64,000 bases of DNA from an uncultured delta proteobacterium (GTDB lineage Bacteria; Myxococcota_A; Polyangia; Fen-1088): positions 992,001-1,056,000 of the forward strand of contig CAVYGB010000002.1 in NCBI GenBank assembly GCA_963767925.1. Reading direction: 5' to 3'. The first letter of the stretch is position 1. Every line of letters begins with the position of its first letter. The position numbers were made by a program, and so were the translations under genes. Under the pieces are notes generated by a model that saw only the letters and a program-made list of their open reading frames with translations, made no database searches and had not been told where the DNA came from. Below are positions 54,320 through 63,003 of this stretch, in pieces.

Positions 54320-55222
54320 TTACACTTCGAGCTCAGCGAGCACGTTGCGCGCCTCCGCCTCGACGACCTGCAACTGCGCCGGCGAAAGCTCCAAAGCCCG
54401 ATAAGCCAACTTCAACCGCTGCCGATCCACCGGATCCCACCCCGCCGCCGCCAGCGGCTGCGGCGCCCCCAACGACAGCGCCAGATGCTCCGCCACATGA
54501 ATGACCGCCGCCAGCGGATGCACGTCCGTAGAGCTGTCCAGCCGATGATGCAGCGTGATCCCCGCCTGCAAATCTTCGGGCAAGTTCCACAGCCGCGCCA
54601 CCAACCCCGACAGCTCCTCGTGCACCGCCGCCACCGCCCGGATCTCCCGCTCGGTCAGCAACGGCGCCGCCGGCTGCTCCGCCAGCACCAGCAGAGCCGC
54701 CGCCAGCCCGATGTCGTGCACCAGCCCCGCGAGGAAGGCGTAGTCGACCGGCACCGGCGTGAACAGCGCCGCCGTCCGCGCCAGGTAGGCCGTCACGGTG
54801 CTGTGCTTGCGGAGCTGCTCGAGCGTGCGCCGGTGCTGCGAGCTGCGGAACACCCCCAGGTCGAGCGCCGCCCGCCACACCAGCTCGGTCACCGACTTGA
54901 GCCCCAGCCGCCCCACCGCCTCGCGGATCGACCGGATCGGGGTCGACCGGGCATAGGCCGGCGCCCGCGCCAGCCGCAACACGCGCGCCGTCAGCAGGGC
55001 ATCCTGCTCGAGGACCGCGGCCACCCCCGCGAAGGTCACGTTGGGCGACTTCGCGATCCGCTGCACCTCGAGCGCCACCGCTGGCAACATCGGCGGGGTA
55101 TAGTCGGGGGCCCGGAAGCGGGTCCGGATCTGCTCGGCCAGGCTCGCCACCTGATCCCCCGGGATCAGGCTCGGCAGGCTCCGGATGTCGAATCCTAGCG
55201 GCGGGGTGGTGCTTCGTTCCAT
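54320..55222 (-). CDS. Stand-alone HDOD-domain protein
   Basis: PMLPAVA, EQDALLTARVLRLA, SIREAVGRLG, AFLAGLVHDIG and WNLPE...HH. Confidence 0.92.
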   Translation of the reverse strand: MERSTTPPLGFDIRSLPSLIPGDQVASLAEQIRTRFRAPDYTPPMLPAVALEVQRIAKSPNVTFAGVAAVLEQDALLTARVLRLARAPAYARSTPIRSIREAVGRLGLKSVTELVWRAALDLGVFRSSQHRRTLEQLRKHSTVTAYLARTAALFTPVPVDYAFLAGLVHDIGLAAALLVLAEQPAAPLLTEREIRAVAAVHEELSGLVARLWNLPEDLQAGITLHHRLDSSTDVHPLAAVIHVAEHLALSLGAPQPLAAAGWDPVDRQRLKLAYRALELSPAQLQVVEAEARNVLAELEV

Positions 55223-55315
55223 TCCAAGGGTTTTCCCGGATTGATTCGGGAACAACCATCGGACGCCCCAGGATTTTCCTGAATCCCCCCTGACCGGACG
55301 CAGGGAGGTCGCGCG

Positions 55316-56304: not shown

Positions 56305-57325
56305 CCCCGCCCCCGAGGCGCCGCTCCACGACCGGCAGAACCGGCTGGTGGAATACCTGCGCGTGTCGGTCACCGATCGCTGCAACTTCCGCTGCACCTA
56401 CTGCCTGCCCGAGGACGGCATCGACCACGTCGACCGGGCCGACATCCTCTCGTTCGAGGAGATCGCCGCCCTGGTCGGCTGCTTCGTGCAGATCGGGGTG
56501 CGGCGGGTGCGCCTGACCGGCGGCGAGCCCACCGTGCGCCGGGACCTGGTCCAGCTCGTCGCCATGTTGCGGGCCATCCCCGGCCTGCGCGACATCGCCC
56601 TGTCGACGAACGGCCACCTGCTGCCCGAGCTGGCCGCCCCCCTGCGGGCGGCCGGCGTCGACCGCCTCAACATCAGCCTCGACACCCTCGACCCCGGCAA
56701 GTTCGCCTCGATCACCCGCCGGGGCGACCTCGATCGGGTGCTGGCCGGGGTGGAGGCGGCGCGCGCGGCCGGCTATCCGTCGATCAAGCTCAACGCCGTC
56801 GCGATCAAGGGCTTCAACGACGGGGAGATAGGGTCCCTCTGCCAGTACGCCTGGACCCGCGGCCTGGTCCCCCGCTTCATCGAGCAGATGCCGATGGCCG
56901 GCGGGGCCCTCTACGTGCCCGGGTCGTTGCTCGCGGCGGCGGAGATCCGGGCCGCCTGCGAGGCGGCCTTCGCGGGCCACCTGGTCCCCTATCAGGGCAG
57001 CGCCGGCGGCGCCGGCCCCGCCCGCTACTGGTCGCTCGAGGACGGCGGCCCGGCCGACAGCCCCCGCCTGCTCGGCATCATCTCCCCGATGACCGAGCAC
57101 TTCTGCGACACCTGCAACCGCGTGCGCCTGTCGGCCGCCGGGGCCCTGCACACCTGCCTGGCCTACGACGACGCCATCGACCTGCGCTCCACCTTGCACC
57201 GCGACGGCCCCGCGGCGGTCATCGGGAGCATCCGCCACGCTCTCGGCGAAAAGCGCGACGGCCACACCTTCCAGCTCATCGGGCTGGGTGGCCCCCGCAA
57301 GGCGATGATTCAGATCGGCGGCTGA
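56285..57325 (+). CDS. moaA: GTP 3',8-cyclase
   Basis: YLRVSVTDRCNFRCTYC, FCDTCNRVRL and C-terminal MIQIGG. Confidence 0.97.
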   Translation: MVASTDSPAPEAPLHDRQNRLVEYLRVSVTDRCNFRCTYCLPEDGIDHVDRADILSFEEIAALVGCFVQIGVRRVRLTGGEPTVRRDLVQLVAMLRAIPGLRDIALSTNGHLLPELAAPLRAAGVDRLNISLDTLDPGKFASITRRGDLDRVLAGVEAARAAGYPSIKLNAVAIKGFNDGEIGSLCQYAWTRGLVPRFIEQMPMAGGALYVPGSLLAAAEIRAACEAAFAGHLVPYQGSAGGAGPARYWSLEDGGPADSPRLLGIISPMTEHFCDTCNRVRLSAAGALHTCLAYDDAIDLRSTLHRDGPAAVIGSIRHALGEKRDGHTFQLIGLGGPRKAMIQIGG

Positions 57326-57331
57326 CGAGCG

Positions 57332-57976
<645 letters not shown>

Positions 57977-58104
57977 GTCTCCTCCTCACCGACCACCATC
58001 ACCGCCAGGGATGACGGGTGCACCGCCGTCGGGGCTTTCCCTCGGTCGTACCCCGGCTCATCGGCAGGCCCCCGAGAAAGTTCACGGCGCCGCTCAAGCG
58101 CCGG

Positions 58105-59508
58105 TCAGCTCTCGGGAAAGAGGGCCGAGCGGAAGATGCCGGCGGGATCGAAGCGCTTCTTGGCCCGCACCCAGGCCTCGTGGCGGTCGCCGTGGTGCTG
58201 CCGCCAGTCGTCGTCGTTCATCCGCCCCAGCCAGCCCGAGGGATAACGCTTGCCGCCCGCGGCGCGCAGGCTGTGGTCGATCTGACGAAAGGTCTGCAAG
58301 ATCACGTCCCGGTCGGGCTCGGCCACCCCGGTGGGCAAGATGGCCAGGCAGACGACGTCGTTGGCCGGGGGCATCGCGAAGAACAGGGGCGCGCCCTGCC
58401 GCGACACCCAGACCGCGCGGTGACCGTCGCCCAGCGAGAGCGGCAGGGCGTCGAGGAGCTCGGGCAGCAGCTCGGCGATCCGGCTGGCCGGCACCAGGCA
58501 CTCGAGCCAGGGGTGGAGCTGGTTCCAGGCCCCCGAGCGCCGCATGCCCTCGAAGCGGGGCTGGTAGCGCTCGAGGTGGGTGACGACGTCGTCGTCCTGC
58601 ACGTGCACCACCTTCCAGGGATCCAGCCCGGCCAGCGCCTGCTCGGCCTCGGGCGGCTGGTCCTGGTATTCGATCCCCACCTGCAGGCCGTACAGCCAGT
58701 GGGAAAACGGGCGCCGCCCCATGTGATCCGAGCGGGTCCCCTTGGCGCTCGACCAGGTGAAGCCCTCGAGGTGATCGGCCCGCCCCGGCTTCACCAGCTC
58801 GCGCTGGTCGGCCAGCCAGCCGGCCAGCTCGGCGTAGAGCAGGTGAAACGTGCGCACCCGCTGCGGCGCCGGCCGCAGCGCCAGCCGGGCCTGGCACAGC
58901 ACCCCGCAGCGGCCCAGCCCGGCCAGCACCGCCTGGTAGAGGTCGGTGCTGGTCATCGGATCGCAGCGGACCGGCCCGTCGGACGCGGTGGCCACCTGCA
59001 GCTCGATGACGTGGGCGGCGGCGGGGCCCTGGCGGTGCGAGTTCGAGCCGATCCCGCCCGCCGAGAGCAGCCCCCCCACCGACATGTCGAGGTTGAGCGG
59101 CAGCACCGTCGGCAGCAGCCCGCGCGGCAAGGTGGCCGCCACCAGCTCGCGCCAGCGGGTGCCGGCCTCGCAGCGCACGCTCTTGCGGGCCACGTCGACC
59201 GCCTCGATGCGGTCGAGGCGGGTGCAGTCGAGGGTCACGCCCCCGGGCGACAGCGACTGCCCCGACTGGCTGTAGCCGCGGCCCCGCGGCGTGAGGGGCA
59301 ACTGCCGGGCGGCGGCGAAGGCCACCACCCGCTCGAGCTCGCCGGTGTCGCGGGGGGTGACCACCCCCCAGGGGTCGCCGTGCTCGATGCGGCCGAAGTC
59401 GACCCCCGCGTGCTGGCGGCTCTCGGGATCGCGGCGGACGAAGATGCCCTGGTCGGCGGCGAGCGTCCCCGCGTCCGCCGCCGACCATCCTCCTGGCAAG
59501 GGGGCCAT
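58105..59508 (-). CDS. FAD-binding oxidoreductase, cytokinin-dehydrogenase-like (VAO/PCMH family)
   Basis: DFGRI...P.GVV.P, RGRGYSQSGQS, SVGGLLSAGGIG, AVLAGLG.CG, HPWL and KKRFDP. Confidence 0.88.
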   Translation of the reverse strand: MAPLPGGWSAADAGTLAADQGIFVRRDPESRQHAGVDFGRIEHGDPWGVVTPRDTGELERVVAFAAARQLPLTPRGRGYSQSGQSLSPGGVTLDCTRLDRIEAVDVARKSVRCEAGTRWRELVAATLPRGLLPTVLPLNLDMSVGGLLSAGGIGSNSHRQGPAAAHVIELQVATASDGPVRCDPMTSTDLYQAVLAGLGRCGVLCQARLALRPAPQRVRTFHLLYAELAGWLADQRELVKPGRADHLEGFTWSSAKGTRSDHMGRRPFSHWLYGLQVGIEYQDQPPEAEQALAGLDPWKVVHVQDDDVVTHLERYQPRFEGMRRSGAWNQLHPWLECLVPASRIAELLPELLDALPLSLGDGHRAVWVSRQGAPLFFAMPPANDVVCLAILPTGVAEPDRDVILQTFRQIDHSLRAAGGKRYPSGWLGRMNDDDWRQHHGDRHEAWVRAKKRFDPAGIFRSALFPES

Positions 59509-59517
59509 GGCAGCCGA

Positions 59518-60228
59518 TCAGCTCGCGGCCGCGAGCTGCGGCGGGGCGGAGCGCTCGGCGTAGACCGCCGGCAGCAGGTCGTTGGCCACGAAGGACTCGA
59601 ACATGCCGCGGAAGGCGGCGTAGCAGCGGTCGACGAGGGCCTCGGCCTGCCGGCGCAGCTCCGGTTCGAGCACCATGGCGTCGATCTTGGCGGCGATCTG
59701 CCGCTCGAACACCTCGTGGTTCTTCTCCACCTCGAGGTGGGAGAACGAGAAGTACTTGAGGGCGCTGGTCTGACCGGCGCTGTCGACCACCTTGGCCACC
59801 CGCTCGAAGAACACGTGACCGGCCGACTCCAGCGTCATCAGCAGCACCAGGCGCAGCCGATCGTCGCTGGCCCGGAACACCTCCGCCATGAGGGCGTGGG
59901 CGGCGTCGCGGGTGGGGGCGTGGCGCTTGCCGAACAGCCCGCGCACGTCCTGCTGGCCCGCGCCCATGACGACCAGGTCGTCGAGGAACCACTGCTCGTG
60001 GCCGGCGTCCTCGACCCGGTGGTGCTTGACGATCCGACGCAGCTCCGGGTCGGTGGTGAAGCGCTCGTTCAGGCGCAAGATGTCCTGGAACACCATCACC
60101 CAGAAGGTAAGGTCGGGCGCGAAGCCGAGGGCGTGCTGCAACGGCAGGCTCGACTCGAGCCGGGCGAAGAACCCGTGGCGCGCGAACTCGGCCTGCTTGG
60201 TCGCGATGTATTCCTGGATGGCTCTCAT
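59518..60228 (-). CDS. Heme-oxygenase-like diiron oxidase (HDO), AetD/SktA-like
   Basis: H..EDAGH..WFLDDL, LESAG.VFF and Y...HLEVEKNH give an ExxH / E / HxxxExxH ligand set; 236 aa, predicted all-helical. Confidence 0.8.
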   Translation of the reverse strand: MRAIQEYIATKQAEFARHGFFARLESSLPLQHALGFAPDLTFWVMVFQDILRLNERFTTDPELRRIVKHHRVEDAGHEQWFLDDLVVMGAGQQDVRGLFGKRHAPTRDAAHALMAEVFRASDDRLRLVLLMTLESAGHVFFERVAKVVDSAGQTSALKYFSFSHLEVEKNHEVFERQIAAKIDAMVLEPELRRQAEALVDRCYAAFRGMFESFVANDLLPAVYAERSAPPQLAAAS

Positions 60229-60461
60229 GACGGCGAAACCTCCGTGGGTGGGTGGTGGGCCGCGTTCGGCCCGCCTCGTTGTCGAGCCTCCCTATCGCAG
60301 GTCTCATGCCAACCCCCTACATCCGGGGCGAAGGCCGAAGATCCCGGAATCATGGGGACAACGGCCGTCTAACCCGACGGGCGACCGCGGCGAGCCGGGC
60401 GACGGAGCCCGGCGAATCACGTGACTCGCCCGCGAAGCACGCGGGGAATCCCGGAGGCCGC

Positions 60462-60986
60462 TCAGGCGGAGTGGGACGCGGCGGCCGGGCGGCGAAAGCG
60501 CGCTCGGAGGGTATCGACGGCCCGGTGCAAGGCCGCGCGCTCGAGGCGCGGCGTGCTGGGCGGCAGGTGGGCGAGCTGCAGGTCGAGCGCCGGCTGCAGG
60601 TCACCGAACACGTGGTGGGGGAACGGCACGCGCGCCAGCATCATCAGACCGGCGGCGATGCCCCGGACCGCGGCCGCCCGGAAGCCGTGCCCCTCGAACA
60701 CCAGGCTCGAGCAGCGGATGTGGCCCGCCCCCGCCTTCAGCATCTTGTTCAGCTCGGCCCGGGCCTCCGCCCGCAGCGCGGGGTGGCGCTCGCCGACCAC
60801 CTGCACGAGGCCGATCCCCGCCGGGAACTGCGCCCCCAGGCGGGTCAACATGTCGGTCACCATGCGCAGGGCCTCGGTCTGGGTGTCGTTGTCCCAGACC
60901 ACGATGGCCACGTTGTGGAAGGTGCCGGCGATGCAGTGCACGTCCCCGTAGACCACCCTGGGCAGGCTGGGATTCGTGGCGCTCAC
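60462..60986 (-). CDS. Hypothetical protein, STAS/SEC14-like alpha/beta domain
   Basis: Pattern IVVW...GLVQVV...AR....LVFEG.GF.AA.VR...VF; GGAGG RBS. Confidence 0.6.
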   Translation of the reverse strand: MSATNPSLPRVVYGDVHCIAGTFHNVAIVVWDNDTQTEALRMVTDMLTRLGAQFPAGIGLVQVVGERHPALRAEARAELNKMLKAGAGHIRCSSLVFEGHGFRAAAVRGIAAGLMMLARVPFPHHVFGDLQPALDLQLAHLPPSTPRLERAALHRAVDTLRARFRRPAAASHSA

Positions 60987-61058
60987 ACGTGCCTCCACCC
61001 TCCCGATCGGCCGGTGCGCCAGCGGGCTTGAGGTGGCGCGGGGCGCGCCCGCAGAGTG

Positions 61059-62117
61059 TCAGGGGGTGAGGGCGAAGCAGTAGATGCCGCCGTAGCCGCC
61101 GCCCGATCCCACGACCGGGTTCGAGAGCACAGGGCCGCCGCCCTTGACCAGGTTGATGCCCGAGCCGCAGCCGGCCTCGTCGAGGTTCGAGATCCAGCTC
61201 TGCACGCCCCGGGGCCAGGACATCCCGCAGCGCGGGCGGCCGGCCGTGGGCACCCGGGTGGTCCAGTCCTGGCAGGTGCTGCGCGGGTCCATGCTGAACA
61301 GGGTCCCGTCGCGGTCCGATCCGGTCATCGTGTGGTGGTTGTCGACGGTCCCCTGCCCAGGGTCGGGGCGGTGGTTGGGCACGCCGTTTTCGTTCGGCAG
61401 GTCGTTGATGATGGCCGGGTGGGCGCCGCGGGGGCGGGTCTGCACCAGGTCGGCCTTGTTCATCGCCACCAGCCGGCCCAGCCGGTCGTACCAGGGGCCC
61501 TCGCCCACCCGATCGATGGCGTTGACCGGCCCGCCGCCGGGTCCACCTTTCGTGGTGCTGAGGAAGGCGCGCCAGGCCTTCTGCCCGGCGCCGGCCATCC
61601 CGACCTCGGCGGCCTGGCGGCAGATCTCGTCGGCTCCCGTGAGCCCGTCGGGCTTGCCGAAGGTGAGGTCGCCGCCGAAGCCGTTGGGGCTGCCCGACAG
61701 CCGGCGCATCACCGACAGGCTGGTCACGAAGAAGCTGAAGCGCGGCAGGTTGGCGGCGGCCGCGGTGTCGCCGCCCGCCCCATCGGGCGTGCGGGCGTCG
61801 CTGGCCCGCGCGCTGTCGCTGCCGCGCGCGTCGGCGGGCCGGCTGCCGCCCGCGCCGCCGCTGCCCCCGCTGCCGCTCCCGCCGCTGCCCCCGGTCGCGC
61901 TGCCGCCCGCTCCCCCCGTCGCGCTGCCGCCCGCGCCGCCGGTCGCGCTGCCCCCGCTGCCCCCGGTGGCGCTGCCGCCCCGGCCGCCGGTCGCGCTGCC
62001 CCCCGTGCCCCCCGTGCCGCCGGTGTCGGGATCGGAGCCGCAGCCGAGCAGGCCGCTGGCCAGGGCGAGAGCGAAGGCGATCGCGGTGGGGCGGGCGGGG
62101 GTGCAAGCTCGTCGCAT
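61059..62117 (-). CDS. Gly-rich lipoprotein with C-terminal endostatin/DUF1554-like lectin-fold domain
   Basis: Lipobox LLGC; (GGxGGSAT)n linker; FFVTS, GL.GAD.IC, WRAFLS, TC.DWT and IYCFA. Confidence 0.75.
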   Translation of the reverse strand: MRRACTPARPTAIAFALALASGLLGCGSDPDTGGTGGTGGSATGGRGGSATGGSGGSATGGAGGSATGGAGGSATGGSGGSGSGGSGGAGGSRPADARGSDSARASDARTPDGAGGDTAAAANLPRFSFFVTSLSVMRRLSGSPNGFGGDLTFGKPDGLTGADEICRQAAEVGMAGAGQKAWRAFLSTTKGGPGGGPVNAIDRVGEGPWYDRLGRLVAMNKADLVQTRPRGAHPAIINDLPNENGVPNHRPDPGQGTVDNHHTMTGSDRDGTLFSMDPRSTCQDWTTRVPTAGRPRCGMSWPRGVQSWISNLDEAGCGSGINLVKGGGPVLSNPVVGSGGGYGGIYCFALTP

Positions 62118-62240
62118 CTGGGCGGCTCCTTGGCGAGAGAGAAGAGTAAAAATGGCCCGCGGCTGACACGCGGGCGTTGCCGGGATGTGGAAAAGGGGGC
62201 ACAGAATACGACAACTCCCCCCCTGGTGTAAGGTCTATCC

Positions 62241-63003
62241 ATGGCAAAGATCGACGAGCTGCGCGGCCGCATCGCCGGCCTGCGGAGCGAGCTCGAGGAC
62301 AAGCTGGCCGCCCTCGTCGAGATCCCCTCGGTCAGCATGGAGCCCGCCCGCCGCCCCGAGATGAACCGCTGCGCGGAGCTGGCCGAGAGCTACCTGCGCG
62401 AGCTCGGCGCCCAGGTCGTCCGCATCGACACGCCCGGCTGCCCGCTGGTGATCGGCCGGCTCGAGCGCGACCCGTCGCTACCGACCGTCACCGTCTACAA
62501 CCACCTCGACGTGCAGCCGGCCGACCCGGCCGAGTGGAAGAGCCCTCCCTTCACCTTCACCCGCGACGGCGACCGCTGGTTTGGCCGCGGCACCACCGAC
62601 GACAAGGGCCCCGCCCTCACCGCGATGTACGGCGCCTGGCTGGCCGCCCAGGACACTCTGCCGATCAACATCCAGTTCCTGTGGGAGCTGGAAGAGGAGA
62701 TCGGCAGCCCCAACTTCGAGGCCGGGCTGCTCTCGGCCCAGGCCCAGGGCTTCACCACCGACTCGGTCGTCGTCTCCGACACGATCTGGCTGTCGGCCGG
62801 TGCTGACCATGCGCCGGCTGCTCGCGGCGCCGATCGTTTTCATGGGCCTGTCGCTGCCCGAACACGGCTACCATGCGGTCGACGAGAACCACGACTGGGA
62901 CCAGGCGTCGGCCGGAGTGGCCATGTTTTACCGGTACTTCCAGGAACTGGGGAATATCGGAACGGTTGCGAAGGCCAGAGCACGCGGTAAGCTGAAGTCA
63001 TGA
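62241..63003 (+). pseudogene. M20/M25/M40 metallopeptidase with the central (dimerisation) region missing and a frame change near 62798
   Basis: YNHLDVQP, GRGTTDDKG, EEEIGS and SDTIW run directly, in another frame, into the C-terminal VLTM...PIVFMGLSLPEHGYHAVDEN. Confidence 0.8.

Follow-up and report, generated by a model that had tools for sequence, protein, structure and literature searches.

A distinct AetD-family diiron oxidase and its cytokinin-dehydrogenase-like flavoprotein partner in a candidate accessory cassette of an uncultured delta proteobacterium

Introduction

AetD and SktA are the only characterized members of their branch of the heme-oxygenase-like diiron oxidases (HDOs), and each catalyzes an unprecedented reaction of tryptophan. 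Both enzymes bind tryptophan to Fe1 through its amino acid group, and AetD forms indole-3-carbonitrile. SktA cuts tryptophan to skatole, cyanide, and bicarbonate, and ascorbate served as the reductant in its assay (PMC11869266). AetD is thought to run several rounds of O2 chemistry according to a 2026 review, which treats only AetD and SktA in its account of this branch (PMC13108848). The SktA report states that AetD homologues occur in varied genomic contexts, all of unknown function (PMC11869266). Here, we describe a computational analysis of one such homologue, which is encoded next to a cytokinin-dehydrogenase-like flavoprotein at positions 58105–60228 of a 64,000-nucleotide stretch of DNA from an uncultured delta proteobacterium (assembly GCA_963767925.1, contig CAVYGB010000002.1, positions 992,001–1,056,000). 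This whole stretch is referred to below as the window.

The described protein closest to the flavoprotein in its deviations comes from a cyanobacterium. In cytokinin dehydrogenases (CKXs), a His residue carries the covalently bound flavin adenine dinucleotide (FAD), an Asp serves as an active-site residue, and the Phe of an HFG motif is needed for activity and stability (PMC4574047). NoCKX1 from Nostoc sp. PCC 7120 has GYT, Leu127, and HYG at these three sites, and the same report describes no CKX activity in any expression system or cell extract. When produced alone, NoCKX1 was unstable, contained no FAD, and bound tightly to chaperonin, and its authors considered other substrates possible (PMC4574047). 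In the parts of that paper available to us, no mention of a partner gene was found.

The oxidase-flavoprotein pair

The two genes and the spacer between them are arranged in the window as follows.

59518..60228, minus strand: AetD/SktA-family HDO, 236 residues (P0001), ATG start; assigned by a phmmer search of the PDB, an AlphaFold2 model searched with Foldseek, and alignment of the metal ligands
59509..59517, minus strand: spacer of 9 nt between the HDO stop codon (TGA, 59520–59518) and the flavoenzyme ATG (59508), read from the sequence; tight and operon-like
58105..59508, minus strand: NoCKX1-type cytokinin-dehydrogenase-like flavoprotein of the VAO/PCMH superfamily, 467 residues (P0002), ATG start; assigned by Pfam, PDB matches, and a motif table

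An earlier note on this DNA, made from the letters alone, had described a 236-residue protein that ends 9 bp before an FAD oxidase on the same strand, and the stop at 59518 and the ATG at 59508 agree with this description. A GGAGG sequence lies 9 nt before the ATG of the HDO gene. The third-position GC content of both open reading frames (ORFs) is 0.94–0.96 in a region of approximately 70% GC.

Fold and metal ligands of the diiron oxidase

P0001 was compared with 177,635 PDB sequences using phmmer. Its residues 1–208 matched AetD with an E value of 1.3e-14, and three AetD constructs were the only real matches. Pfam yielded only a sub-threshold match to Haem_oxygenas_2 (E 0.008), and NCBIfam contained no model that matches the protein. 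The AlphaFold2 model, which was built on 39 relatives, has a predicted local distance difference test score (pLDDT) of 89.5. In a Foldseek search with this model, the top 21 matches were all AetD chains, with template modeling (TM) scores of 0.76–0.81 (0.80 to AetD) and sequence identities of 23–24%. CADD, TenA homologues, UndA, BesC, and PqqC ranked after AetD, with TM scores of 0.69 or less. The likeness to AetD and SktA proposed in the earlier note, which had named UndA, BesC, and TenA/PqqC as structures to compare, is therefore upheld by the search statistics, the fold, and the six aligned ligands described below. A TenA/PqqC-type non-metal protein was ruled out by the fold ranking and the ligand set.

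The metal ligands of AetD are D76, H79, E140, H172, E176, and H179 (bioRxiv 10.1101/2023.08.03.551874). These six residues align with D74, H77, E134, H164, E168, and H171 of P0001, which are the predicted ligands of the window enzyme and are invariant in the 39 relatives. They fall within the motifs EDAGH (residues 73–77), LESAG(H) (133–138), and HLEVEKNH (164–171), all of which had been picked out from the sequence beforehand. The ligand spacing had been written as ExxH...E...HxxxExxH. The diiron set as such aligns with that of AetD, but its first member was misassigned; because AetD D76 aligns with D74, the first-helix ligand is D74 and not E73, and the motif is DxxH rather than ExxxH.

AetD F48 sits where SznF-type enzymes carry a fourth carboxylate (bioRxiv 10.1101/2023.08.03.551874). 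The invariant F47 of P0001 aligns with this residue, and there is no fourth carboxylate at the auxiliary-helix position. Therefore, Fe1 would be left open for coordination by the amino group and the carboxylate of a substrate. In the AetD pocket, F44 stacks on the indole, S214 contacts the 7-bromine, and Y167 binds the substrate carboxylate. The invariant W43 of P0001 aligns with F44 and the invariant F206 with S214, while L133 and A136 align with AetD M139 and A142. SktA, which was compared via its published residues, has Phe at the S214 position and T139/T142 in place of M139/A142 (PMC13108848). The L133/A136 pair of P0001 is nearer to that of AetD than to that of SktA.

A cyanobacterial member of the same subfamily was used as a query against 151 Nostocaceae genomes and gave a match in 72 of them. 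Only four matches were at least 40% identical (genomes G089, G220, G222, and G196), in addition to a 69-residue fragment in G109. The remaining matches were 23–31% identical, and 18 of these were aligned. These 18 sequences have the motifs xAMSFxDL, EDxxHW, and IEATG and a two-residue insert before helix α3, whereas the window subfamily has FWVMxFQD, EDxGHE, and LESAGH and lacks the insert. His138, located one turn past the ligand E134, is invariant in the subfamily (39 relatives) and missing in most of the aligned AetD/SktA-like Nostocaceae sequences. By its sequence, P0001 is an AetD homologue of a subfamily distinct from AetD and from the AetD/SktA-like proteins common in Nostocaceae; therefore, its reaction may be neither that of AetD nor that of SktA. 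The subfamily is widespread, with 266 protein clusters matched. It is very probable that P0001 is a functional diiron enzyme of the AetD family.

P0001 thus shares with AetD (PDB 8TWW and 8JI2) homology over the whole length, the fold, the set of three His and three carboxylate ligands, the Phe of the auxiliary helix, and an aromatic residue at the F44 position. It differs from AetD in its low identity (approximately 24%), the Phe in place of S214, the absence of the α3 insert, and the extra invariant His138. The surroundings differ as well; a scan of ORFs at 38–64 kb of the window gave neither a halogenase nor a P450 or tryptophanase, and the partner is a CKX-like flavoprotein. The same scan revealed no nonribosomal peptide synthetase or polyketide synthase, in agreement with what had been noted before. 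To our knowledge, the aet cluster has no gene for a CKX-like flavoprotein. SktA from Nostoc punctiforme, like P0001 an AetD-family diiron enzyme with Phe at the S214 position, acts on a tryptophan, and its gene belongs to a very small cluster that also encodes flavin enzymes (PMC11869266), which resembles the small cassette with a flavoenzyme described here. However, the partners of SktA are a halogenase and a flavin monooxygenase and not a CKX-like oxidase.

Replaced catalytic residues in the flavoprotein

P0002 contains the Pfam domains FAD_binding_4 (E 6e-29) and Cytokin-bind (E 1e-13), both past the cut-off. Its best PDB matches are plant CKXs, with E values from 4e-42 down to 6e-29 (1e-29 to 4e-42 for plant and Rhodococcus CKXs). 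The prior assignment to the VAO/PCMH-type FAD oxidases with a likeness to CKX is supported by these domains, but the covalent His and the catalytic Asp are replaced. P0002 has the same two domains as the plant and Rhodococcus enzymes (ZmCKX1, PDB 1W1O), whereas the counterparts of His105, Asp169, and the HFG Phe all differ. The plant GHS sequence with the covalent-FAD histidine (ZmCKX1 H105) is replaced by GYS (Y79), the plant WTDYL segment aligns with LPLNL, in which Leu138 takes the place of the catalytic Asp (ZmCKX1 D169), and the C-terminal HFG is replaced by HHG. Therefore, P0002 is not a cytokinin dehydrogenase and should not be filed as a CKX. The assignment as a true cytokinin dehydrogenase was rejected on the basis of these three replacements.

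NoCKX1 deviates from the plant enzymes in the same three ways (GY(T/S), Leu for Asp, and H(Y/H)G); it has been studied alone. The oxidase-linked flavoenzyme of Nostoc parmelioides (locus L014), to which P0002 is 46% identical, has Y68, L127, and Y426, the residue numbers published for NoCKX1. All 22 oxidase-linked flavoenzymes compared lack both the covalent His, which is replaced by Y, L, M, or N, and the catalytic Asp. At the position of the HFG Phe, they have F, Y, H, L, I, or W. The domain for the substrate, Cytokin-bind, is kept and is conserved across the 21 aligned proteins.

The window genome (G000) has a second CKX-like homologue (L168, G000:C8:3266418-3267749; 34% identical), which keeps the His and the TDYL Asp motif. 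It lies inside an open frame of 1328 residues with no oxidase nearby and may represent a canonical type of enzyme joined to further domains.

Coupling of the oxidase and the flavoprotein

To describe the neighborhoods of the oxidase, 91 loci were used, of which 17 came from contigs of one genome per species (Sorangium, metagenome-assembled genomes (MAGs) of Polyangiaceae, four cyanobacteria, and two alphaproteobacterial MAGs) and 74 came from metagenome contigs. Genes in these loci were called heuristically as the longest non-overlapping ORFs, with a third-position GC filter in high-GC loci. Many of the metagenome contigs are short, and related sequences are not independent. A flavoenzyme was detected by tblastn in 31 of the 91 loci. 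Sixty-four loci extend 300 bp or more past the oxidase stop codon; in 26 of these, the flavoenzyme is located directly downstream on the same strand, and in two more (L089 and L090), it is fused to the oxidase. The gap between the two genes is estimated to be −53 to +46 nt; L014 is the exception, with a methyltransferase gene in between. The fusions are single ORFs of 689–700 residues (L087/L089 and L090), with the oxidase at the N-terminus and the FAD_binding_4 and Cytokin-bind domains at the C-terminus. A search for longer proteins found four more fused clusters (672–700 residues, 35–41% identical to the oxidase), two of which are annotated as "cytokinin dehydrogenase" in their source.

A tree of 87 oxidase sequences was calculated in a quick maximum-likelihood search (LG+G4); six loci were excluded because they had fewer than 190 aligned residues, and several long branches were flagged. 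Pairing with the flavoenzyme occurs in at least six separate places on this tree. It is found in 5 of the 22 rows of the window's clade and in 18 rows of another 22-row clade, the other four loci of which are too short to tell. The further places are L017/L079, the cyanobacterial L014, L065, with the flavoenzyme encoded upstream of the oxidase, L068, and the clade of fused proteins. By their records, two of the paired loci are cyanobacterial and alphaproteobacterial. The linkage between the two genes, which the earlier note had proposed to check by neighborhood analysis, thus holds in at least six clades and extends to fused polypeptides.

Searches were also started from the flavoenzyme. Eight of the 401 genomes of the window's phylum contain a flavoenzyme homologue. 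Two loci (L161 and L162) have an oxidase immediately upstream, a GYS sequence, and no Asp; the six others all keep the His, three of them also keep the Asp, and none has an oxidase within 1.5 kb. A homologue was present in 53 of the 151 Nostocaceae genomes, and 30 loci were examined. In these, the oxidase adjoins only the GYT-type L100 (the same place as L014), while the 28 other intact homologues, which have the His in 26 cases and the Asp in 17, have no oxidase beside them. In total, intact flavoenzymes of the GY[ST] type without Asp lie beside an oxidase in 3 of 3 cases (L161, L162, and L100), against none of the 34 others within 1.5 kb (28 from Nostocaceae and 6 from the window's own phylum; 32 keep the His and 20 the Asp). 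The loss of the CKX catalytic residues and the linkage to the oxidase go together because only the deviating homologues adjoin the oxidase in these flavoenzyme-started searches. A functional coupling of the oxidase with the flavoprotein is highly probable.

Two Nostocaceae genomes carry remnants. In G109 (G109:C1:1584332-1587663), the 69-residue oxidase fragment is followed 2.2 kb downstream by a CKX-like gene truncated at its N-terminus; this arrangement has the look of a decayed cassette. L131 (G220:C69:7318-7971) is a decayed oxidase gene with an internal TAG.

Third and possible fourth genes of the cassette

Two further genes on the same strand come into consideration as parts of the cassette.

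57332..57976, minus strand: putative small-ligand-binding protein of the H-NOX/V4R superfamily, 214 residues (P0122), GTG start; assigned by tblastn, AlphaFold2, Foldseek, and VIA-align
60462..60998, minus strand: protein of 178 residues without a recognizable family, possible fourth member; 233 bp upstream of the HDO gene, with homologues near fused genes

The P0122 gene starts 128 bp past the flavoenzyme stop codon, and a GAGGAGG sequence lies 5 nt before its GTG. Homologues were found by tblastn in 12 other oxidase loci. They are 59–62% identical in L028, L031, and L037, which are of the flavoenzyme type, and 41–44% identical in L024 and L030, which are of a methyltransferase type described below; the matches in L036, L044, L046, L060, L062, L063, and L065 are weaker. 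The first five are loci of the window's clade that reach past the tailoring genes, and most other contigs end at or inside those genes. The P0122 family comprises 45 clusters of approximately 197 residues, every one of which is unnamed or "hypothetical". Several of these clusters share longest contigs of equal size with oxidase matches (8819, 48222, 29166, and 6186 bp).

The AlphaFold2 model of P0122 has a pLDDT of 90.4. H-NOX proteins were the top Foldseek matches (E 1e-5, TM 0.50–0.57) and also led in VIA-align with Z scores of 11.3–12.6, the best being 4u99 (Z 12.6; root-mean-square deviation 4.1 over 175 residues). BcsD, VirS, TRAPP Bet3-type proteins, PoxR (Z 8.8), the V4R protein 2oso (8.7), and DmpR (8.4) came next, with PoxR and DmpR aligned over approximately 135 residues. 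Pfam gave a weak V4R match (E 0.07) and no model at threshold. The invariant residues of the family include H109, H112, C154, C182, and C190. The phenol sensor MopR has its zinc cysteines at C155, C181, and C189 and holds the phenol with H106 and W134 (PMC9556785); C154, C182, and C190 of P0122 parallel these cysteines in numbering. P0122 is labeled here as a putative H-NOX/V4R-superfamily ligand-binding protein because of the fold matches and the Cys/His pattern, and it may bind heme, zinc, or an aromatic ligand. Unlike the MopR, DmpR, and PoxR sensors, P0122 is a stand-alone protein of a family of 197–214 residues and has no output domain.

Homologues of the 178-residue protein that are 40% identical are encoded immediately ahead of the fusions of L087, L089, and L090, and one is also present in L088. 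The protein had no match in Pfam, NCBIfam, or the PDB, and the ESM Atlas returned only hypothetical clusters of Myxococcota. A SpoIIAA-like lead from the ESM Atlas (0.85) was not trusted.

The two-enzyme pathway that had been envisaged from the sequence stands as far as the pairing is concerned, but the unit is larger than two genes; P0122 belongs to it, and the 178-residue protein perhaps does.

Accessory character of the cassette

The cassette lies in a segment with the following limits.

57326..62240: accessory segment of approximately 4.9 kb, missing between MoaA and the M20 peptidase in the same-family genome G008; delimited by flank comparison
61059-62117, minus strand: lipoprotein-like ORF of 352 residues inside the accessory segment, recognized by its signal sequence

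In the 88 other genomes of the order, the HDO gave a single match, which lies in G008 and is only 28% identical; the remaining 87 had none. In G008, the MoaA match ends 12 bp short of the M20 peptidase match, and positions 57326–62240 of the window, which hold the four cassette genes and the lipoprotein-like ORF, have no counterpart between them. In the same-genus genome G001, MoaA and the M20 peptidase are on different contigs, and no cassette protein was found in the flanks that were retrieved. No integrase, tRNA, or repeat evidence was seen at the segment, and repeats at its borders were not looked for. By this distribution, the cassette behaves as an accessory element.

The match in G008 is itself a fused gene (L019, G008:C2:484970-488632, ORF 271–2196) of 642 residues, with a DMATS-type prenyltransferase (Trp_DMAT, E 7e-13) in the N-terminal part and a distant AetD-like oxidase domain (27–28% identical) in the C-terminal part. 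Two more such fusions are P0168 and P0169.

Substrate and proposed reaction sequence

The neighbors of the oxidase in related loci bear on its substrate. DMATS-family prenyltransferases, which are mostly indole enzymes, lie beside the oxidase in L012, L018, L087, L089, and L090 and are fused to it in L019, P0168, and P0169. The FAD_binding_3 oxygenases of related loci have VioC as their best NCBIfam match by a wide margin, over the full length and below the equivalog cut-off (E 3e-65 and 2e-55), and they are accompanied by Methyltransf_2 O-methyltransferases. VioC oxidizes an indole at C2. For the skatole pathway, the SktA authors proposed that SktC, a monooxygenase not yet studied, oxidizes C2-C3 of bromoskatole (PMC11869266). 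An indole-type substrate is suggested because DMATS enzymes, VioC-like oxygenases, and O-methyltransferases occur in the related loci, and we consider tryptophan or another indole the probable substrate of the window enzyme.

In a large flavoenzyme-linked metagenomic clade (L045, L050, L055, L069, and L092), a VioC-like oxygenase precedes the cluster and a small T2SSC-domain protein regularly follows it; in L045 and L055, PAS-GGDEF-EAL proteins precede it as well.

We propose that an accessory cassette of three or four genes for indole chemistry is built around the oxidase and the flavoenzyme, and we give this explanation as a whole a somewhat better than even chance. On the minus strand, the order would be the 178-residue protein, of uncertain membership, the diiron oxidase, the flavoenzyme, and the H-NOX/V4R-like protein. 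By homology to AetD and SktA, the HDO would be triggered by its substrate and would chelate a free aromatic amino acid at Fe1, for which L-tryptophan or a tryptophan modified on the ring is most likely. It would then use O2 to cut or rearrange the alanyl side chain and yield a 3-substituted indole, which may be a skatole-like compound formed with cyanide and CO2 or a compound of the aminomethyl, imine, or nitrile type. The flavoprotein, with the CKX fold and non-covalent FAD, might take two electrons from this indolic product, its scaffold being one for oxidizing amines to imines. In a vinylogous version of this chemistry, a hydride could be removed from a 3-methyl group via a methylene-indolenine to give a carbinol or an aldehyde; in another option, an aminomethyl or aldimine group would be oxidized toward an aldehyde or a nitrile, and the flavoprotein would take over the later oxidation rounds of AetD. 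As its fold and co-occurrence suggest, the H-NOX/V4R-like protein may serve as a sensor or carrier to which the aromatic product, or else a co-product, binds. Any one specific product, taken singly, is doubtful.

Several observations speak against this proposal. The counterpart of AetD Y167 in P0001 is either Y159 or F160 and is ambiguous owing to a two-residue gap. With an identity to AetD of only 23–24%, and with the subfamily only 23–31% identical to the AetD/SktA-like proteins of Nostocaceae and different from them in its motifs, both the substrate and the reaction may differ. No prenyltransferase, oxygenase, methyltransferase, or tryptophan gene lies beside the window cassette among the ORFs scanned at 38–64 kb. 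The heme-propionate motif of H-NOX proteins is YxSxR; P0122 has Y152-P-C-A-F, in which this motif is not evident from the sequence. The flavoenzyme is missing in 36 of the 64 testable loci. It is absent from all seven Sorangium loci, which form one clade and have a divergently oriented NMO-family gene instead, and from six loci of the window's clade, in which an O-methyltransferase (Methyltransf_2 plus dimerization domain) followed by a VioC-like FAD_binding_3 oxygenase takes its place. In L021, one of the two closest relatives (71% identical), the downstream neighbor is a convergent gene for a pseudouridine synthase and not the flavoenzyme. The oxidase can therefore work without the flavoenzyme. 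Loci of the methyltransferase type and of the flavoenzyme type can be sisters, as in L030 and L031, and the mixed loci suggest interchangeable tailoring enzymes behind a shared oxidase step.

In the Sorangium loci (L003-L007, L010, and L013), the gene divergent from the oxidase encodes an NMO-family flavin mononucleotide enzyme (nitronate-monooxygenase/FabK-like), and a gene for an Rce1-like CAAX protease is present in five of the seven. Here, the same oxidase subfamily has another conserved partner.

Alternative explanations

A tyrosine or phenolic substrate would be an alternative that we consider unlikely. The HDO would then give a 4-alkylphenol (of the p-cresol type, with cyanide and CO2), the flavoenzyme would oxidize its benzylic position as VAO and PCMH do, and the third protein would be a phenol-type sensor. 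AetD has been crystallized with L-tyrosine and with L-phenylalanine (PDB titles 8zvg and 8zvh); however, the characterized relatives AetD and SktA all use tryptophans. W43 and F206 in the pocket of P0001 are bulkier than F44 and S214 of AetD. The flavoenzyme belongs to the VAO/PCMH superfamily, but its nearest solved relatives are CKXs and not VAO or PCMH. P0122 is similar to the phenol-sensing domains of PoxR and DmpR (Z 8.4–8.8), its Cys pattern is like the MopR zinc site, and its invariant H109 is found where H106 of MopR holds the phenol OH. An aromatic hydroxylase and an O-methyltransferase as alternative partners would also fit catechol chemistry, although the partner oxygenases match VioC far better than any phenol hydroxylase model and DMATS-family prenyltransferases neighbor or are fused to the oxidase.

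The order of the two enzymes could also be reversed, with the flavoenzyme making the HDO substrate by oxidizing or cyclizing a modified amino acid, or the flavoenzyme could re-reduce the diiron site. We regard this explanation, too, as improbable. Characterized HDOs need an external reductant, such as the ascorbate of the SktA assay. We know of no dedicated reductase for these enzymes. The fusions and the tight gene coupling fit an electron-transfer pair as well as consecutive enzymes, and the lost catalytic Asp and covalent flavin attachment would fit a changed role of the flavin. On the other hand, the flavoenzyme has no NAD(P)H-binding domain and has kept a Cytokin-bind domain that a mere reductase would not need, and close relatives exchange the flavoenzyme for an O-methyltransferase and an oxygenase, as expected of tailoring steps and not of an obligatory redox partner. 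The third explanation, that the flavoenzyme is a true CKX, placed by chance next to the oxidase or in a cassette that degrades plant-type hormones from outside, is extremely improbable in spite of the Cytokin-bind domain and the plant CKXs as best matches of known structure (E 4e-42). The flavoenzyme has other residues in place of the covalent His, the catalytic Asp, and the HFG Phe, and NoCKX1, with the same three deviations, is reported to be inactive as a cytokinin dehydrogenase (PMC4574047). The pair recurs in at least six clades and as fusions, and none of the 34 homologues of the other type lies beside an oxidase.

Implications of the pairing

Our literature search, which did not extend to the supplements of the papers on SktA and AetD, found no report that connects an oxidase of the AetD type with a cytokinin-dehydrogenase-like protein; those supplements might list the subfamily or its neighbors. 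What appears to be new here, as judged from the genes, is a distinct oxidase subfamily with an obligate-looking flavoprotein partner, natural fusions of the two, and a putative dedicated binding protein. A third reaction type is a reasonable expectation because the subfamily is distinct and has its own conserved partner. The puzzle of NoCKX1, which looks like a CKX and has no activity, no flavin, and little stability alone, gains a testable explanation in a diiron-oxidase partner.

Signaling genes are found near the cassette in relatives. Genes for CheY-like regulators are divergent from the oxidase in L026, L028, L031, L032, L037, L038, and L039, and further neighbors are CheB and HEAT-repeat genes, GGDEF/EAL genes (L045, L055, and L075), and a histidine kinase gene (L057). 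These neighbors fit a signaling role without showing one. Together with the conserved H-NOX/V4R-like protein, they make a small-molecule signal a concrete hypothesis, and we infer, as the earlier note did, that the product may be a volatile, a signal, or a predation compound. In its boldest form, the unit of the oxidase and the NoCKX1-type flavoprotein would turn tryptophan into a new indole-derived signal, possibly with cyanide, which is read by the H-NOX/V4R-like receptor of the cassette; this version is speculative, and we would not expect it to hold in full. If it is true, it would give the "cytokinin dehydrogenase-like" proteins of bacteria a function for the first time and would point to an origin of the plant cytokinin dehydrogenases among partners of diiron amino-acid oxidases.

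Surroundings of the cassette

The genes outside the segment have housekeeping functions or no relation to the cassette. They encode MoaB and MoaA (plus strand), an HDOD protein, a succinate-dehydrogenase-type flavoprotein, the M20 peptidase, CcmE, and an M19 dipeptidase. The ORFs at 38–50 kb include genes for a CotH protein, an RCC1-repeat protein, an amidohydrolase, a polysaccharide deacetylase, and a sigma factor. An Rfam scan of 56800–62600 (E up to 1) gave no match. In a promoter and terminator scan, no promoter-like site was found, and the one terminator-like site, at approximately 62155–62175, was no more than is found in shuffled sequences.

The HDOD-domain signaling protein (54320–55255, minus strand) is encoded 2 kb from the cassette, and an HDOD-EAL protein adjoins the cluster in the metagenome locus L069, which may be a coincidence. 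The lipoprotein-like ORF (61059–62117) consists of a long Gly/Ser/Thr-rich linker and a C-terminal domain of approximately 220 residues without a Pfam match, and its C-terminal part has several DNA-level paralogues (69–75% identity) on other contigs of G001.

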